Positions 14,025 through 62,319 of a stretch of 64,000 nt of DNA are shown one piece after another (the first letter of the stretch is position 1; each line of letters begins with the position of its first letter). Location: the NCBI GenBank assembly GCA_026683435.1, contig GCA_026683435.1_4866.1, one strand, 5' to 3'. This stretch comes from a phage. The notes beneath the pieces are model-generated. The model saw only the letters and a list, made by a program, of their open reading frames with translations. It searched no databases and was not told where the DNA came from. Made by a program: the position numbers and the translations under genes.

Positions 14025-14936
14025 TTAGGCATTAAAGTGCAGGTACATGATACCCTGGAAGTTGGTGCACAGAGTGTCATCCAGCTGCAGCAGCAGAACC
14101 TGGTTGTAAGCAGTGTTTGCACCTTCAACCGGTTTCTTAGGTTCGTCGCCTGAAGCAGTGCCATCGTCAGTAGTAGAACCAACGTACAACACGTTAGCGC
14201 CTTTCAGGTTATAATCCGCAGGCTTATCAGATGCAACCCACAGTTCCGGCACAACTTTATTCAGCTCAACCGGGAATGCAGAGTCGCCAGCGATAACACC
14301 TTTCGCCTGTACTTTCAGGAATGCTGCGATTGCTGTGCAGTCTACACCGTAAGAGTAGATGTAACCCTGACCCTTCGCAGCGCTTGGACCATCTGGGTAA
14401 ACCAGGCCGTCGAGCTTGGTTTGTGTTACCACCAGACTCAGACGTTCACCAACCTGAGGCTTAGCACCGATTTTAACCGGGATGCTGCCCAGATAAGCGT
14501 AGCAGTCTTCTTTGAAAGTAATGACGTGGTCAACCGGTGCTGGGTCCGGATCGTTCGGGTTAGTCAGCGGCGGGTTGGTATTTTCCGGAATAGCCGCCGG
14601 AACGATATCGTCTTCGGTCAGCTTCAATCCGTATTGGGTGTTCAGGGTCGTCAGCAGGTCGGTGGTGGTTTTCGGCAGTTTAACGTCGAGGTATGCGGTT
14701 ACATTACGGAACAGCGCACTGCCTTCCAGGCGATTATAAGTCACGTCCTGAGTACCGATGTACCCGGAGTTCTTTTTCGCAGTCAGGGTCATGCTGGTAT
14801 TGCGATCGGCACCTTCATCGCTAATAGGGGTCGGTGTGCCGAGCGTTATTTTAGAAAGTTCCAGTTCTGCGTCTGGGTTTTTCTCATTAATAAAATCCAG
14901 AACCAGCTTATCGGACGTTTTGTTTAAAGGTTTCAT
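14025..14936 (-). CDS. N-module paralog C-type, 303 aa
   Basis: MKPLNKTSDKLVLDFINEKNP...ADRNTSMTLTAKKNSGYIGTQDVTYNRLEGSALF...QYGLKLTEDDIV; C-terminal MYLHFNA. Confidence 0.6.
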   Translation of the reverse strand: MKPLNKTSDKLVLDFINEKNPDAELELSKITLGTPTPISDEGADRNTSMTLTAKKNSGYIGTQDVTYNRLEGSALFRNVTAYLDVKLPKTTTDLLTTLNTQYGLKLTEDDIVPAAIPENTNPPLTNPNDPDPAPVDHVITFKEDCYAYLGSIPVKIGAKPQVGERLSLVVTQTKLDGLVYPDGPSAAKGQGYIYSYGVDCTAIAAFLKVQAKGVIAGDSAFPVELNKVVPELWVASDKPADYNLKGANVLYVGSTTDDGTASGDEPKKPVEGANTAYNQVLLLQLDDTLCTNFQGIMYLHFNA

Positions 14937-22967: not shown

Positions 22968-22992
22968 ACTGAGATAATATCTATCTGAAATA
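22968..22992 (-). promoter_or_regulatory. promoter/operator-like element, copy 2
   Basis: Plus cactgagataatatctatctgaaat; leader stem ctctga...tcagag follows. Confidence 0.5.
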
Positions 22993-30592: not shown

Positions 30593-30618
30593 CCCCTAGA
30601 TAACATCTATCTGAAAAG
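30593..30618 (-). promoter_or_regulatory. promoter/operator-like element, copy 3
   Basis: Plus cccctagataacatctatctgaaaag; leader stem gggagaa...ttctccc. Confidence 0.5.
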
Positions 30619-38876: not shown

Positions 38877-38904
38877 TCCCTAAGATAACATCTATCCAAA
38901 AAAG
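38877..38904 (-). promoter_or_regulatory. promoter/operator-like element, copy 5
   Basis: Plus tccctaagataacatctatccaaaaaag. Confidence 0.45.
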
Positions 38905-51176: not shown

Positions 51177-53921
51177 ATGGAAGATATTAGTAAATTAACG
51201 GGCGACCCCGCGGTAGCTGCCATACTGCGTAAGTCCACGAGCCCGTCGGCTCAGCAGCAACGCGGTAAGCGTGAAGATGGCGGTGTTACACCAACCCGTA
51301 CAGAACTCACGGGCATTGCGAGTAGCCGCATTCGCACCGTTAAAAATGCCGAACGTATCTTTGATGCGCTCCCTGAGTTAGAGGTCATTGTTACCATCGC
51401 GACCTCCTCGCTCCTGTCCACAAAAGATTTGATTAACACCACGCTGATTTACGACAACGTGGCTGATATCCCGATCGACCTGCGTCAGCAGTTATTGGAA
51501 CCTGTGCGTGAATTCCATGACCACACGCGTCAGTTACCCAACAAACTGTATCAGTGGATTTACGATGCACTGAAATCCAAAGGCGCGAGCCCGGTGTTGC
51601 TGATTTCAGATACCGGATTCGATGAACTCTTCGGCTTAAAGCCGTCTGTTGCAACCGAATCGTTGCGCCGTAGCCAATCCGACTTCTTTGAACGTCAGTT
51701 GGGTATCCTGGGCAAGATTGGCGGTGAAAACAAACCGAAGGTTGGTGTAGAAAGTATTCTGGGTCGTGCACGTGGAGCTGACAAGCCCACCAAGCCACAA
51801 ACCATTAAACTTAACTTTGCAGCAGCCCCTAACAGTCCGTTTAAAGCAGACGGTATGTTAGCTTCCCTGGATATCGTTATCACCGACAACCCGCGTATTA
51901 CCCTGCTACCAGAGGCTTATCGCCGTGTGGCACAGGAGAATGCTCGCACCGGCCTGTTCGGTCAGTTAGAGCAGTACGCATATGAACAACCTTCTACGCC
52001 GACAGGTGCGTCAGCGTATAACGCTGACCAGTTCACAGACAGCGAACAAGAGAAGGCAAAACTCGGTTTAATCAACATCGGCGACCTCAACGAAGCGTAC
52101 CAGAAAACGCCTGAGCAAAAGCTTTACGGCGAAGTACCGAAGATGAGTTTCTCCGATGCCAACAAAATCGAATACACGGAACGATTACTGCCAGCAGAGT
52201 CCACACTCCCACTCGTTATCGGTGACGATGTTCGTAACCCCATAGGTTATCTGGCCATCGTTGACGAAATGGGTAACTTCATTAACTCGCGTTCCACACT
52301 TTACGGTGATGCGAACTTCATGAACTACCTGAACAACGACGGTATGGTGGATTCAACAATCAACCGTGCAAATCTGGGGATGGGCAACACAACCCGAATC
52401 ACACCAGACATTGCTAACCGCTTAACAGCGCGTTATGGTGAGATTGCTGAAGACCAGCTAACCAAAGCTCTGGGTGAGGCGTTGGGTGGTGCTGAGATTA
52501 GCATGACAGTAACCGAAACGTTCAGCCGTATCATGTTAGCACGCCATCTGGCAAAACGCCACACGCAGGTTATCTATATTCCTGCGGAAAACCTTTGCTA
52601 CTTCGCCACAGACTTTGATGAAGACGGCATCGGTGTGTCTATTACCGAACGTTCGTTCGTTATCTCTACTGTCCGTATGGCGCTGCTGTTCGCTACCATG
52701 AACTCTGCGGTGTTAAACTCTGCCCGTCACATGCAGTACGACATTGAGTTGGCACCAGACGACATGAACGGTCAGAAAACAATTGACCAGCTGAAAACAG
52801 ACATCATGAACTCCTATAACCGTCGTCAACCGATGTGGGGGGACATGAACGACACCTGGGCAATGACGACAAACGCAGGTATTGCGTTTAACGTTATTGG
52901 TAACGACTACTACGGTAGTACCAAAGTGTCTGTGTCGGATACTACGCCGGATTATAAATACCCGGATAAGGATTTCGACGAAGGTCTGTTACGTCGCACT
53001 TGTCACATCGCTGGCGTTGACCCCGACCTGGTAATGACCCCCGAGAACATCGAATTCGCTTCACAGATTTTCTCTAAATCGTTACTGGTCACCCAGCAGG
53101 TTGTTAAGAAGCAAGAGATTCTCTCTAAGCCGCTGACACGTTACGTAGTTAATGGGATGTTGGCCTCTCCGTCGTTGCAATCAGCGATGATTAAAATCAT
53201 TGCAGAGTACATCAACGCTAACGGTAATGGGATGACTACTGACCAGATTACGAAAAAGGTCTCTGAGTACCTGGCTGCGTTTATCAACGGTATGAAAGTA
53301 ACCTTACCACCGCCAGACACCTCTGCAGCAGCTTCGCAGATGGAGCTGTTCGATAAACGTACGGAGTTCTTTGAGAAGCTGGCTGATCTGGTTGTAACGG
53401 ATGACATTGCTGCGCAACTCCAGCAAGAAGGCATCACGATGGACCCGAACGATCTGAAGACGATGATCAAGTCCTTCTATACGCGCAACTGGCTGCGTAA
53501 ACAAGGCATTGAAACCGACTTCTTCGATCTGGTTTACGACGATGATTCTCGTCAGGACAACATCACCATGATGACTGATGAAGCGATGGCTGCTTCGAAA
53601 ACGCTGATTCAATTGGCGAAACGTTTTACAGGTCGTCTGGAAACGTTGGCGAAAAATGCTGACCTTGACCCTAACGAATCTGCTGGCGGATTCAGCGGTG
53701 GTTTTGATGCGGGCGGTGACACCGGTGGCGGCGAGGGAGATCTCGGTGGTGGAGGTGACGATGATTTAGACCTCGATTTCGATACGGATAACGGAACCGA
53801 CGGGGATAGTACAGGGGAAACGACTGAGTCGACCGAAACCACGGAAACAACTACCGAGGGAACGGAAGGCACAGAAGGTGGTGAAGGAACTACCGACGAC
53901 AACCCAGACAACGTCCTCTAA
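51177..53921 (+). CDS. 914-aa protein with acidic low-complexity C-terminal tail; candidate portal protein (speculative)
   Basis: ATG at 51177 with GGAG SD; C-terminus DLDLDFDTDNGTDGDSTGETTESTETTETTTEGTEGTEGGEGTTDDNPDNVL; one of only two plus-strand genes. Confidence 0.65.
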   Translation: MEDISKLTGDPAVAAILRKSTSPSAQQQRGKREDGGVTPTRTELTGIASSRIRTVKNAERIFDALPELEVIVTIATSSLLSTKDLINTTLIYDNVADIPIDLRQQLLEPVREFHDHTRQLPNKLYQWIYDALKSKGASPVLLISDTGFDELFGLKPSVATESLRRSQSDFFERQLGILGKIGGENKPKVGVESILGRARGADKPTKPQTIKLNFAAAPNSPFKADGMLASLDIVITDNPRITLLPEAYRRVAQENARTGLFGQLEQYAYEQPSTPTGASAYNADQFTDSEQEKAKLGLINIGDLNEAYQKTPEQKLYGEVPKMSFSDANKIEYTERLLPAESTLPLVIGDDVRNPIGYLAIVDEMGNFINSRSTLYGDANFMNYLNNDGMVDSTINRANLGMGNTTRITPDIANRLTARYGEIAEDQLTKALGEALGGAEISMTVTETFSRIMLARHLAKRHTQVIYIPAENLCYFATDFDEDGIGVSITERSFVISTVRMALLFATMNSAVLNSARHMQYDIELAPDDMNGQKTIDQLKTDIMNSYNRRQPMWGDMNDTWAMTTNAGIAFNVIGNDYYGSTKVSVSDTTPDYKYPDKDFDEGLLRRTCHIAGVDPDLVMTPENIEFASQIFSKSLLVTQQVVKKQEILSKPLTRYVVNGMLASPSLQSAMIKIIAEYINANGNGMTTDQITKKVSEYLAAFINGMKVTLPPPDTSAAASQMELFDKRTEFFEKLADLVVTDDIAAQLQQEGITMDPNDLKTMIKSFYTRNWLRKQGIETDFFDLVYDDDSRQDNITMMTDEAMAASKTLIQLAKRFTGRLETLAKNADLDPNESAGGFSGGFDAGGDTGGGEGDLGGGGDDDLDLDFDTDNGTDGDSTGETTESTETTETTTEGTEGTEGGEGTTDDNPDNVL

Positions 53922-59149: not shown

Positions 59150-59183
59150 TGAACATCCCAGTAATAATACCAAAAGAATTATT

Positions 59184-59209
59184 CACGTAGATAATATCTA
59201 TCTCAGATT
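59184..59209 (-). promoter_or_regulatory. promoter/operator-like element, copy 6
   Basis: Plus cacgtagataatatctatctcagatt, about 40 nt upstream of ATG 59149. Confidence 0.5.
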
Positions 59210-59262
59210 ACTTTGGGCACGGGTTCATACCCAGTGCCCTTAACGTAAAAAACTTTAGGGTA

Positions 59263-59346
59263 TCAAACGTGGTGACCGTTCGCCATAGAACCGCGCCCAT
59301 CAAACATCGGTGCAACTAGTCTTGATCTCTCTAAATTGACTTCCAT
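59263..59346 (-). CDS. possible 27-codon small ORF between two promoter-like elements
   Basis: ATG at 59346 with AAGGAG SD; MEVNLERSRLVAPMFDGRGSMANGHHV. Confidence 0.3.
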   Translation of the reverse strand: MEVNLERSRLVAPMFDGRGSMANGHHV

Positions 59347-59380
59347 TACTGTCTCCTTAAGTTAAAACCGAATGACTCTC

Positions 59381-59406
59381 TCCCTAAGATAATATCTATC
59401 TATAAA
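59381..59406 (-). promoter_or_regulatory. promoter/operator-like element, copy 7
   Basis: Plus tccctaagataatatctatctataaa, just downstream (minus sense) of the terminator. Confidence 0.5.
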
Positions 59407-59410
59407 TTTT

Positions 59411-59451
59411 TAGAAAAAAAGAAAAAGCTTACTCCCCGAAGGGAGTAAGCT
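59411..59451 (-). terminator. hairpin terminator after gene 59482..61782
   Basis: gcttactccc-cgaa-gggagtaagc preceded (plus) by aaaaaaagaaaaa. Confidence 0.75.
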
Positions 59452-59481
59452 AATCTTAGGCAACGTAATCCTTACGGATTA

Positions 59482-61782
59482 TTAGCCGCCAGCGCCTTCA
59501 CCGCCAGTACCTGGCTGGGTAGCGCCGCCGCCAACATCACCCGCATTACCGCCATTAGTACCGCCAGTACCGTTGGAAGTAGTAGTGACGTTGAACGCCA
59601 GTTTCTCTTCCACGAACTTGGTGATACCTTTAATCCAGATCAGACCAGTGATCGGGCAGTGGCAGATGTGTGCGTTACGAGGCTGTACTGCCAGCTCTTT
59701 GCTGGTAGCGCCGTTACGCTGGATGTTGATGTTGGTTACCATGATCGGAGACCAGAAGTGGTTACCCCAGTTCAGAACACAGTAAGAACCATCATCAGCG
59801 GTTGGAACTTTCAGAACCCACTGCAGGCGGCGAGTCCAGCTGCCGTCAGCTTCGTTCTTCACACGCCAGCGGTCATCGTTGGTGGTGATAACTTCGTACT
59901 CGTAGCGATCGCCCAGCAGACGCTGGTCACCCTGAACCAGCAGCAGCATTGCAGCAGTCGGTTCGTCAGTTGCGATAACAACTTTCGGCAGTGCGTTCGG
60001 ATCCGCGGTCAGCAGGCGCAGAGCCGGCATGAAACGAGAATCCTGGATAGCACGAGTTACCTGGTCGCCGATACGCTGTACCAGACCCTGACGGGCGTTG
60101 ATGAGCGCATCTTTGGTATCCAGAGACTGGATCACTTTGTCCACTTCGTAGTCGCTTTCGCTGTACCACGGAGCAACCCAGTGACGGCCCAGGCCGCGGA
60201 TAGCAGGTTTGTCCCACGGAGTGATCATGGACGCAGCTGCGTTCTTAACCGCTTCGGTGTAAGACAGAGTCTGAGTGATAGCCAGCATTTCGTTACGGAT
60301 GTTAACCGCAGAAACGAGGTCGTCCAGACGTTCGGTGTCGTCGTATTCAACGCCAACCGGAGATTTGGTCATGATCGGAGAACCGTACTGCAGTTTGTAG
60401 TTCTCTTGTTCCCAAATCGGGTCGAGCAGAAGACCCTGGGTTCTCCGGTTCTCGTTGGTACGAGTACCGTCGAAGCGCCAGCCCAGCAGCTCCAGTTTCA
60501 GGTTGTCGATGATCACTTTACCGGTGCCGCTTTCGATATCAACAGCAGTACCAGTTGCGTCGTACAGACCTTCGATTTCCAGAGACGGTGCAGTCACGTC
60601 AACACGACCAGAGAACTGACCGTTGGTGAACAGAGACATGCTGATGTTCATGGAATAACGAATGGTGTAATCGTTCTGTGCCAGAGCGGCCAGTGCCGGG
60701 ATTTCAGCACCTTTCCAGTCCAGAGACTTGGCGTTCAGGGAGAACACAGTGCGACGGAACTGCAGGACCAGCTCACGGCCATCACCTTCAGGAGGACGCT
60801 GGAAGGTAGCGAACTGCATGTCGCGTACGTTCAGTTTGATCAGCGCACCATCTTTCGCTTCTTCAGTCGGCTTACGCACAGACAGCAGCAGGCTACCCAG
60901 CGCTGCACCCGGTGCGATTTCGTCGGTTTCATCGTAACCTTCCTGCACGATACCTGGATGGGCAGACAGCTGGAACAGATTCAGACGACGTTCAGAGAAG
61001 CTCAGGTAGTTGGTCGGATACGCCGGCACACGACCCAGCTGAACGTTTTCGTTTTCGATGATGTCTTCGGATACGAAGAACTTCGCGTTCTCACCGGTTT
61101 CCATCACGTAAGGTACGATACGGATAGCATCGTCCTGCAGGACTTTGTGGTTAGACAGCGCGTTATGCAGCGGCTGACGGTTGTCTTCAACCACGTCTTT
61201 GGTCAGCAGGGCGTTCAGGATACCACGAGTTACAGTAGTAACTTTGGTACGAACGGTGATGCCGACGTCGTTGGTGTCCACAGTGATGGTCGGGAACAGG
61301 GTTTCTGCAAACTTGGATTGAGTTTCCAGAGCACGCACGTTCAGCGTCCAGGTCAGACCCAGGTTTTTGTCCAGGTCTTTGTTGGTGTAGTATTCGGTTG
61401 CGACCAGCGGAGTTTTACCGTAGTCAGCAGCCAGAGATGCTGCACCAGAAATAGCGATCGGCATGTAGCTGGCATATTCCGGCTTCGCGCTCTCAGCAGC
61501 AACACGGGTCATGAAGTCGTCTTCGTGACCGGCAGCAGCCAGAATCATCGCAGAAGCAACCTGAGCAGCGTGGCTCATGGTTTTGCCAGGGTTTACAGCT
61601 TCGTAGTGCTGCTGAGCAGTGTCACGCAGGTTGGTGAAGCCGGCAGCATTTTTACGTACAGATTCGCCAACGGCTACGGTTTGCCATACGTCATTAGCGG
61701 AAGAGCCTGCCTTGGCAGCAGCGACCAGAGCATTGCCCTGCTGAACCAGCTGGTCCAGACTAGCGATACGGGTATCTTTCAT
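59482..61782 (-). CDS. abundant structural protein, 766 aa; candidate major capsid protein of a large phage (speculative)
   Basis: Strongly optimised codon usage (ctg, cgt, ggt, acc, gaa); Gly-rich C-terminal tail; strong terminator; a capsid protein of this size would suggest a jumbo phage. Confidence 0.7.
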   Translation of the reverse strand: MKDTRIASLDQLVQQGNALVAAAKAGSSANDVWQTVAVGESVRKNAAGFTNLRDTAQQHYEAVNPGKTMSHAAQVASAMILAAAGHEDDFMTRVAAESAKPEYASYMPIAISGAASLAADYGKTPLVATEYYTNKDLDKNLGLTWTLNVRALETQSKFAETLFPTITVDTNDVGITVRTKVTTVTRGILNALLTKDVVEDNRQPLHNALSNHKVLQDDAIRIVPYVMETGENAKFFVSEDIIENENVQLGRVPAYPTNYLSFSERRLNLFQLSAHPGIVQEGYDETDEIAPGAALGSLLLSVRKPTEEAKDGALIKLNVRDMQFATFQRPPEGDGRELVLQFRRTVFSLNAKSLDWKGAEIPALAALAQNDYTIRYSMNISMSLFTNGQFSGRVDVTAPSLEIEGLYDATGTAVDIESGTGKVIIDNLKLELLGWRFDGTRTNENRRTQGLLLDPIWEQENYKLQYGSPIMTKSPVGVEYDDTERLDDLVSAVNIRNEMLAITQTLSYTEAVKNAAASMITPWDKPAIRGLGRHWVAPWYSESDYEVDKVIQSLDTKDALINARQGLVQRIGDQVTRAIQDSRFMPALRLLTADPNALPKVVIATDEPTAAMLLLVQGDQRLLGDRYEYEVITTNDDRWRVKNEADGSWTRRLQWVLKVPTADDGSYCVLNWGNHFWSPIMVTNINIQRNGATSKELAVQPRNAHICHCPITGLIWIKGITKFVEEKLAFNVTTTSNGTGGTNGGNAGDVGGGATQPGTGGEGAGG

Positions 61783-61794
61783 TTCAAGTTTACC

Positions 61795-62319
61795 TTATTT
61801 AGATAAATGACATGCGTACAACTGCGTCAGCACTTCGTGCGCAGCAAACTGCGTCGACGTACTGAACGTATCATCCACGACACGAGTCTTGGGACGCATA
61901 TATTTAAAAAGTTCTGCGCAGAACATCTTTTTCGCAGCGTGGTCTTCACTTAAAGAAAAACCCGGTCCGGATTTAGCTTCTGCAAAAGACGCCACAACAA
62001 CATCGCCACGTTGTGAGAACACCCAACGTAAACGACCGTCGAATGATTCCCCATATAAATCAGCAAGGGTTTCATTCGTACCTTTCTCAACCAGGTTTAA
62101 GACCTGGTCATAATAAAGAGTCGGAAGTGCAGGTGGTGCCATAATCGATTTATAAATCGAAATAGGGTCACTCACTGGCAGTATGATGGAACTAAAGCCC
62201 GACGAGCAGTCATATAACCAGTTAAAGAAGCTTGCTTGGAGTTCCTCCAACTTTTTAACGCCAGCCCCTTTATCTATGTTAGATTGAACTTCCCACGGTG
62301 GACTAAAACGAATTTGCAT
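61795..62319 (-). CDS. hypothetical protein (about 174 aa)
   Basis: Track ORF extends to 62373; first ATG at 62319 (MQIRFSPPWEV...). Confidence 0.55.
   Translation of the reverse strand: MQIRFSPPWEVQSNIDKGAGVKKLEELQASFFNWLYDCSSGFSSIILPVSDPISIYKSIMAPPALPTLYYDQVLNLVEKGTNETLADLYGESFDGRLRWVFSQRGDVVVASFAEAKSGPGFSLSEDHAAKKMFCAELFKYMRPKTRVVDDTFSTSTQFAAHEVLTQLYACHLSK

Follow-up and report, generated by a model that had tools for sequence, protein, structure and literature searches.

The 766-aa open reading frame that runs from ATG to TAA on the minus strand, at exactly 59482-61782 of the window (the whole analysed stretch of phage DNA, 64,000 nucleotides in length), stands out through its codon usage and raises the question of which protein it encodes. 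An earlier note, made from the sequence alone, had read it as a capsid protein of a large phage. It pointed to the strongest codon bias among the large genes of the window, to a strong terminator behind the gene and to a 914-aa protein with an acidic tail nearby, as in the capsid-to-portal neighbourhood of phiKZ/SPN3US-like phages, and it named an abundant non-capsid shell protein as the alternative. We identify the gene, at a probability of about 98%, as that of the major capsid protein of an SPN3US-like jumbo phage (Seoulvirus, phiKZ-related). The gene is already known and well studied, as gp75 of Salmonella jumbo phages of the SPN3US group. The features discussed below are listed in Table 1.

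Table 1 Features of the capsid gene and its surroundings, in coordinates of the window.
Feature	Position	Strand	Description
Portal protein gene	51177..53921	+	Orthologue of SPN3US gp81; 914 aa with an acidic C-terminus; belongs to the same head module and is encoded on the other strand
Intrinsic terminator of the capsid gene	59416..59451	-	11-bp stem, UUCG tetraloop, T-run
Major capsid protein gene	59482..61782	-	Orthologue of SPN3US gp75 (SPN3US_0075); 766 codons and a stop, precursor of 83.9 kDa
Gly/Thr/Asn-rich low-complexity C-terminal tail	59485..59592	-	Residues 731-766; position corresponds to the C-terminal arm of phiKZ gp120
Mature shell-forming part, HK97-type core with large insertion domain	59593..61392	-	Residues 131-730; from Pfam, gp120 alignment and Foldseek
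N-terminal propeptide	61393..61782	-	Residues 1-130, 13.5 kDa; ends in ATE-130; predicted mostly helical
Probable ribosome-binding site AAGG	61793..61796	-	10 nt before the ATG; read from the sequence

Codon usage of the 766-aa gene

Codon statistics were calculated for 71 non-overlapping open reading frames of at least 100 aa each, selected from the window, and Fop values were based on the classical, long-established set of optimal codons of E. coli. With an Nc of 33.4, the 766-aa gene shows the lowest value of all 71 reading frames, most of which lie at about 45-61, and its Fop of 0.826 for E. coli-type (enterobacterial) optimal codons is the highest, the bulk ranging from about 0.40 to 0.60. 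The description of this gene as the most codon-biased large gene of the window is therefore borne out. Leucine is encoded by CTG in 66 of 70 cases, isoleucine by ATC in 36 of 41 and glycine by GGT or GGC in all 59, while TTA, CTA, TCA, ATA, GGA, GGG and AGG are entirely missing from the 766 codons. The preferred codons comprise CTG, CGT, GGT, ACC and AAC, and also GCT, GTT, TCT and GAA. The GC content of the gene amounts to 0.546 compared to about 0.48 in the window, with a GC3 of 0.60, and the raised GC content at 60-62 kb (0.533 versus about 0.48) corresponds to this gene.

Among the sizeable genes, the second most codon-biased is located at 14025-14936. It reaches an Nc of 39.4, the next-lowest among genes of at least 250 aa, and the runner-up Fop of 0.72, and it encodes the orthologue of SPN3US gp141, a protein that Ali et al. 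found to exceed the tail sheath in abundance per unit mass (PMC5694885). Since the runner-up thus encodes another abundant virion protein, the inference from codon bias to expression gains support.

A second long reading frame of 715 aa lies antisense to the gene at 59659-61806 (plus strand) and was considered as an overlapping gene. It is open only because the capsid gene, with which it lies in exact codon register, contains no TTA, CTA or TCA codons, and it was rejected as a by-product of the codon bias.

Identity and fold of the encoded protein

Direct comparison with SPN3US gp75 revealed identity at 766 of 766 residues, and the two genes differ at 19 of 2301 nucleotides, all 19 differences being synonymous. 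The protein matches the Pfam family PhiKZ_MCP (PF25620) with 751.6 bits at a gathering cut-off of 27, profile positions 2-634 of 635 aligning to residues 72-725, and the 'major head protein' family PHROG 3231 over positions 1-745 of 746 (E 1e-297). The comparison with jumbo-phage capsid proteins that the earlier note had proposed was carried out as a tblastn search of a phage collection. In SPN3US, SEGD1, the SPFM and SPLA series, JN03, Proteus phage 7 and others, it returned a protein that is 100% identical and carries the annotation of a major capsid or head protein; identity was 86-91% in Erwinia and SPAsTU relatives and less than 60% in Pseudomonas phiKZ-like phages. That the alignment ended at residue 730 is due only to the low-complexity filter. 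All 39 relatives collected from the databases carry PF25620. Those on long contigs reside on contigs of jumbo-phage size (165-250 kb), a few of which were deposited under bacterial names. The reading as a large-phage capsid protein is supported by the complete identity to SPN3US gp75 together with the membership in PhiKZ_MCP.

SPN3US gp75 has been experimentally established as the major capsid protein (PMC5694885, PMC10052503, PMC7552025). In mass spectrometry of virions purified from SPN3US, gp75 yielded more spectra than any other protein, and its copy number was estimated at 1,560-1,615 per virion (PMC5694885, PMC10052503); the isolate studied here differs from SPN3US by 1-3% of its DNA. 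This high virion abundance is consistent with the extreme codon bias of the gene. In cryo-EM, SPN3US displays a T=27 shell with an HK97-type core in which hexamers and pentamers are both built from gp75 (PMC7552025).

For the fold, solved structures were searched by sequence and with a predicted model. The sequence search of the PDB returned the major capsid proteins 11bt (E 5.5e-50) and 36za (E 4.9e-49), the phiKp24 major head protein 8bfl (E 4.4e-32) and phiKZ gp120 (8y6v, E 1.2e-28). The last alignment pairs residues 130-726 of the query with residues 163-735 of the chain, that is, it extends from the mature N-terminus to the mature C-terminus. Proteins of T4 were absent from the matches in both the PDB sequence search and Foldseek. 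An AF2 model, built from an alignment of 34 full-length homologues, was moderately confident overall (mean pLDDT 61.7, pTM 0.42), good in the region of the insertion domain (about 220-440) and in most of 540-660, and poor at the junction of propeptide and arm and in the C-terminal tail. Foldseek placed this model closest to the phiKZ capsid 8y6v (E 1.9e-29), followed by the phiKp24 capsid 8bfl (E 7.9e-29) and the capsid of Staphylococcus jumbo phage S6 (7x30, E 7e-7), and thereafter by weak matches including many other HK97-fold capsids and encapsulins.

Global TM-scores of the model to solved capsids were low (0.29-0.38) because the predicted arrangement of the domains to each other is unreliable, and the fold was therefore judged by homology to solved HK97-type capsids instead of by a clean superposition. 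Judged by local 3Di and sequence similarity, the protein is predicted to adopt an HK97-type fold with an insertion domain, as phiKZ gp120 does. The latter consists of an N-arm, the insertion domain, P and A domains and a C-terminal arm, and builds a T=27 shell in which it occupies hexamers as well as pentamers (PMC11297242). The check for HK97-fold capsid homology, suggested along with the original reading, thus turned out positive by sequence as well as by Foldseek.

Membership in a capsid family could also befit a specialised vertex or minor capsid protein, a paralogue comparable to T4 gp24 and distinct from the major shell protein, given that T4 fills its pentamers with HK97-fold paralogues (PMC5694885). 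The shared use of gp75 in hexamers and pentamers of SPN3US speaks against such a role, as does the finding that phiKZ gp120 fills pentamers too (PMC11297242). Moreover, the extreme codon bias is what is expected of the most abundant protein, and a second PhiKZ_MCP gene was not seen among the 8 neighbouring proteins scanned, which leaves the vertex paralogue with a very slim chance.

Even less probable is the abundant non-capsid shell protein of the earlier note, for instance the shell protein of the phage nucleus (chimallin), an idea that draws on the apparently very high expression of the gene and on the presence of a nucleus shell protein in phiKZ-like phages. Family and structure matches reject it: in Pfam and PHROG only major capsid families were matched, and every significant match to a solved structure, by sequence or by fold, was a capsid, with no non-capsid structure at an E-value of 0.001 or better. 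The identical protein of SPN3US is furthermore the dominant virion protein (PMC5694885). We hence retain the assignment as the major capsid protein.

Gene neighbourhood and transcription signals

The window belongs to a Seoulvirus, an SPN3US-like and phiKZ-related jumbo phage, with 97-99% DNA identity to deposited genomes of 240 kb. From 48 to 64 kb the identity amounts to 98.9% with Escherichia phage vB_EcoM_EC001 and to 97.9% with SPN3US, and the first 25 kb (1-25 kb) show about 97% identity with some indels. The window is therefore not a deposited record; it stems from a species-level group that is already known, as a new isolate or variant.

The 914-aa protein matches SPN3US_0081 at 903 of 914 aligned positions, most differences residing in the acidic tail. 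Its last 40 residues contain 13 D/E and no K/R, so that the term 'acidic-tailed' is correct. It falls into PHROG 3004, and the solved chains similar to it include 9xpe ('PHIKZ129', 12 chains, E 1.4e-49) and a 'Portal Protein gp36' (E 1.5e-26). Both published protease sites of the portal, ATE-161 and AQE-254 (PMC10052503), are conserved. SPN3US gp81 is the established portal protein (PMC5694885, PMC10052503), and the 914-aa protein is its counterpart, homologous to phiKZ gp129. Five genes, gp76 to gp80, separate the capsid gene from this cognate portal gene, and one of them, a 592-aa reading frame, belongs to a PHROG annotated as 'polymerase'. Upstream of the capsid gene follow gp74 and the divergently transcribed gene of a DnaB-like helicase, gp73 (Pfam divDNAB). 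The capsid gene is syntenic in all Seoulvirus genomes. Both the acidic-tailed neighbour and the resemblance to a phiKZ/SPN3US-like capsid-to-portal region, described in the earlier note, have thus proved real.

The GC content and GC3 given above could be taken as a sign that the gene was acquired recently from a host-like genome, which would explain its codon usage without translational selection. This origin is unlikely in the extreme, given the PhiKZ_MCP gene in 39 of 39 relatives, on jumbo-phage-sized contigs wherever these are long, the conserved synteny, the same trend in gp141 as another abundant virion gene, and a preference for translationally optimal codons, among them four that end in A or T (GCT, GTT, TCT and GAA), a choice that is not simply GC-rich. 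We infer that translational selection, linked to the abundance of gp75, caused the bias.

The hairpin of the capsid terminator (59451-59426, minus strand) lies 31 nt past the stop codon. Its stem includes 6 G-C pairs, and the tail reads TTTTTCTTTTTTT. The region folds with a dG of -27.2 kcal/mol (z = -5.2), a value that none of 200 shuffled sequences reached, and the terminator is kept in SPN3US and SPLA1a, in line with its earlier description as strong. At the other end of the gene, the AAGG of the putative ribosome-binding site overlaps the stop codon of gp74; its assignment is probable, as judged by position and sequence. A consensus scan for sigma-70-type promoters found 6 sites compared to 6.1 in shuffled sequences, none of them convincingly upstream of the capsid gene, and the late promoters of the phiKZ type (TATG) are too short for prediction (PMC7598289), so that no promoter was assigned to the gene.

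Between the capsid terminator and gp76 we observed a reading frame of 27 aa that is preceded by a strong Shine-Dalgarno sequence. Its reading as a small gene in its own right was rejected, since the alignment explains it better as the N-terminal remnant of a 232-aa gene. This gene is intact in SPLA1a, whereas about 607 bp are deleted in the window, in SPN3US and probably in EC001; most other Seoulvirus records list a hypothetical protein at this place. The intact 232-aa protein has no match in Pfam.

A further observation concerns the 14-mer GATAGATRTTATCT, which is present in five copies where 0.25 would be expected by chance. All copies are intergenic and lie on the transcribed minus strand. 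The motif is usually followed by TAGGGAG, and three copies stand directly after terminator-like hairpins, the capsid terminator among them. In jumbo phages that encode RNA polymerases, AT-rich conserved motifs of about 10 nt near -10 mark the early promoters of the virion RNA polymerase (PMC7598289). The 14-mer appears promoter-like and fits this pattern; a search of the literature found no description of it for SPN3US.

Processing, C-terminal tail and comparison with known systems

The prohead protease gp245 of SPN3US cleaves after A-X-E motifs, and ATE-130 is its site in gp75 (PMC10052503 Table 2). In the window protein the ATE motif likewise ends at residue 130, so the propeptide terminates in a prohead-protease motif of the form (A/G/S)-X-E; that cleavage takes place has been published for the identical SPN3US protein (PMC10052503). 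Calculation gives 83.9 kDa for the precursor, 70.4 kDa for the mature protein and 13.5 kDa for the propeptide, the same figures as in the literature (PMC10052503 Table 2). In the alignment of 34 homologues E130 and Y131 are invariant and preceded by (A/G)-X, which indicates that the cleavage site is conserved across the capsid family. The AF2 model predicts helices between residues 3 and 97 of the propeptide.

Taken together with the literature on SPN3US, these data suggest the following course. The 83.9-kDa precursor would be made in very large amounts, presumably late in infection, and such very high late expression would account for the host-optimised codons as well as for a transcript that ends in a strong terminator. 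A T=27 prohead would then be built from this precursor, the portal and internal proteins. A gp245-type protease would cut after Glu130 of the A-T-E motif and thereby free the helical 13.5-kDa propeptide, and the resulting 70.4-kDa HK97-type protein would form all hexamers and pentamers of the shell, in about 1,560-1,615 copies.

The match to the PhiKZ_MCP profile ends before the C-terminal tail, which also lies outside the ordered core of every solved homologue. Glycine makes up 42% of the last 36 residues, and the AF2 model predicts disorder, with pLDDT values below 50 at residues 728-766. Among the 34 homologues the tail is hypervariable in length (about 15-60 residues) and in sequence, apart from a semi-conserved GGNAGDVGG. 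The corresponding C-terminal arm of phiKZ is helical at the centre of hexamers and touches a vertex protein at pentamers (PMC11297242), and in SPN3US a small protrusion, so far unassigned, is visible in the middle of the hexamers (PMC7552025). One may speculate that the tail is a functional, surface-exposed and flexible appendage present about 1,600 times per capsid, and not a neutral linker, although we consider this rather doubtful. As examples of such a function, the tail may form the protrusion at the hexamer centre of SPN3US, or it may act as a rapidly evolving 'fuzz' in adhesion or against aggregation.

The protein offers little discovery value, being the shell protein of a model jumbo phage that experiments have already characterised, here in an isolate that diverges slightly. 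The locus is of use for calibration, in that capsid and portal were recognised from raw sequence by length, codon bias, terminator and gene order. Within the window codon bias tracks virion abundance, gp75 ranking first and gp141 second, a relation that could be used as a rule of thumb when unannotated phage genomes are searched for major structural genes.

Of the known systems compared here, SPN3US is the closest. Its gp75 (YP_009153369) shares with the window protein all 766 residues, the ATE-130 site and the terminator, and its gene has the same neighbours, gp74 upstream and gp76-gp80 followed by the portal gene gp81 on the other side. The window differs from it in the 19 synonymous nucleotides within the gene, and its surrounding genome is 97-99%, and not 100%, identical to deposited Seoulvirus sequences.

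PhiKZ gp120 (8y6v) belongs to the same Pfam family and likewise combines an HK97 core and an insertion domain with a propeptide removed after a glutamate (PMC11297242), but it shows only about 20% identity to the window protein in the Foldseek alignment. Its propeptide comprises 163 residues compared to 130 here, and its C-terminal arm is a 20-residue segment that is helical in hexamers, whereas the window protein ends in a Gly-rich tail of 36 residues with predicted disorder. The phiKp24 head protein (8bfl/8bfp), 11bt and 36za show significant full-length homology (E 4e-32 to 5e-50), with phiKp24 among the top-ranked fold matches, but they are distant in sequence and stem from other jumbo-phage lineages. 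T4 gp23 resembles the window protein: it is an HK97-type capsid protein with an insertion domain, a homologous prohead protease trims its N-terminal propeptide behind a Glu, and it is expressed at very high levels late in infection (PMC5694885). In contrast, the T4 propeptide measures 65 residues instead of 130, and T4 possesses a separate vertex protein, gp24.

Codon usage and virion abundance

The second strongest codon bias among the sizeable genes (effective number of codons 39.4, fraction of E. coli-type optimal codons 0.72) belongs to the orthologue of SPN3US gp141, a protein reported to be highly abundant in the virion (PMC5694885). Codon bias therefore tracks virion abundance in this genome.

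[quoted passage not shown] A 715-aa ORF lies antisense to it in exactly matching codon register. The reverse complements of TTA, CTA and TCA are the three stop codons, and the ORF stays open only because the capsid gene uses none of these codons. We rejected this ORF as a gene; it is a by-product of the extreme codon bias.

In several records of the Salmonella phages SPFM6, SPFM7, SPFM8, SPFM12, SPFM14 and SPFM20 the capsid gene is annotated in low-coverage fragments of 510-743 aa, and BLAST matches are split among 17-18 segments, which points to numerous sequencing errors or frameshifts in those deposited genomes rather than to biology.

Intergenic features and a promoter-like motif

Coordinates of the features are listed in the table.

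Features of the window discussed in this part
Feature	Position	Strand	Remarks
gp74 start codon (ATG)	62319	-	homology with the SPN3US annotation
gp73 (DnaB-like helicase) start codon (ATG)	62334	+	
27-aa ORF (MEVNLERSRLVAPMFDGRGSMANGHHV)	59261-59344	-	inside intergenic stretch 59174-59481; strong RBS
Antisense 715-aa ORF	59659-61806	+	
gp141 orthologue	14025-14936	-	
Capsid C-terminal tail, residues 731-766	59485-59592	-	Gly/Thr/Asn-rich, low-complexity
Portal, C-terminal part	53500-53921	+	
GATAGATRTTATCT motif copies	22972-22985, 30598-30611, 38883-38896, 59189-59202, 59387-59400	-	
Seven consecutive ORFs, 265-303 aa	11387-17464	-	alike in size
Four consecutive ORFs, 267-342 aa	32132-35620	-	alike in size

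Upstream of the capsid gene, the start codons of gp74 and gp73 are divergent with 14 bp between them, so any promoters must be within the adjoining coding sequences. On its 3' side, the 27-aa ORF is what remains of a 232-aa gene that is whole in the related phage SPLA1a; a hypothetical protein is annotated at this position in most other Seoulvirus records, and about 607 bp are missing here both in the window and in SPN3US. Despite the deletion, the promoter-like motif described below, the RBS and the start codon are still present at the remnant.

The motif GATAGATRTTATCT occurs five times in the window, compared with 0.25 copies expected by chance, and is often followed by TAGGGAG. Every copy is intergenic and on the transcribed strand, and three lie just 3' of terminator-like hairpins, that of the capsid gene among them. 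We consider the motif a candidate phage promoter; it is similar to AT-rich motifs that have been described for early promoters, those of the virion RNAP, in RNAP-encoding jumbo phages (PMC7598289).

Runs of similar-sized ORFs

Judged by size and order, two runs of consecutive ORFs look like candidate tandem paralogue arrays. Families of paralogous head proteins have been reported for SPN3US.

C-terminal tails of the portal and capsid proteins

The 914-aa portal protein differs from its orthologue SPN3US gp81 at 11 positions, 8 of which, including a one-residue insertion, fall within the last ~125 residues, and 6 within the last ~70, which form the acidic low-complexity tail; outside the C-terminal part the protein is almost invariant. 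The capsid tail is predicted to be disordered, and both its length and its sequence are hypervariable across 34 homologues, with a semi-conserved GGNAGDVGG within it. Its positional counterpart in phiKZ is the C-terminal arm of the capsid protein gp120 (PMC11297242).
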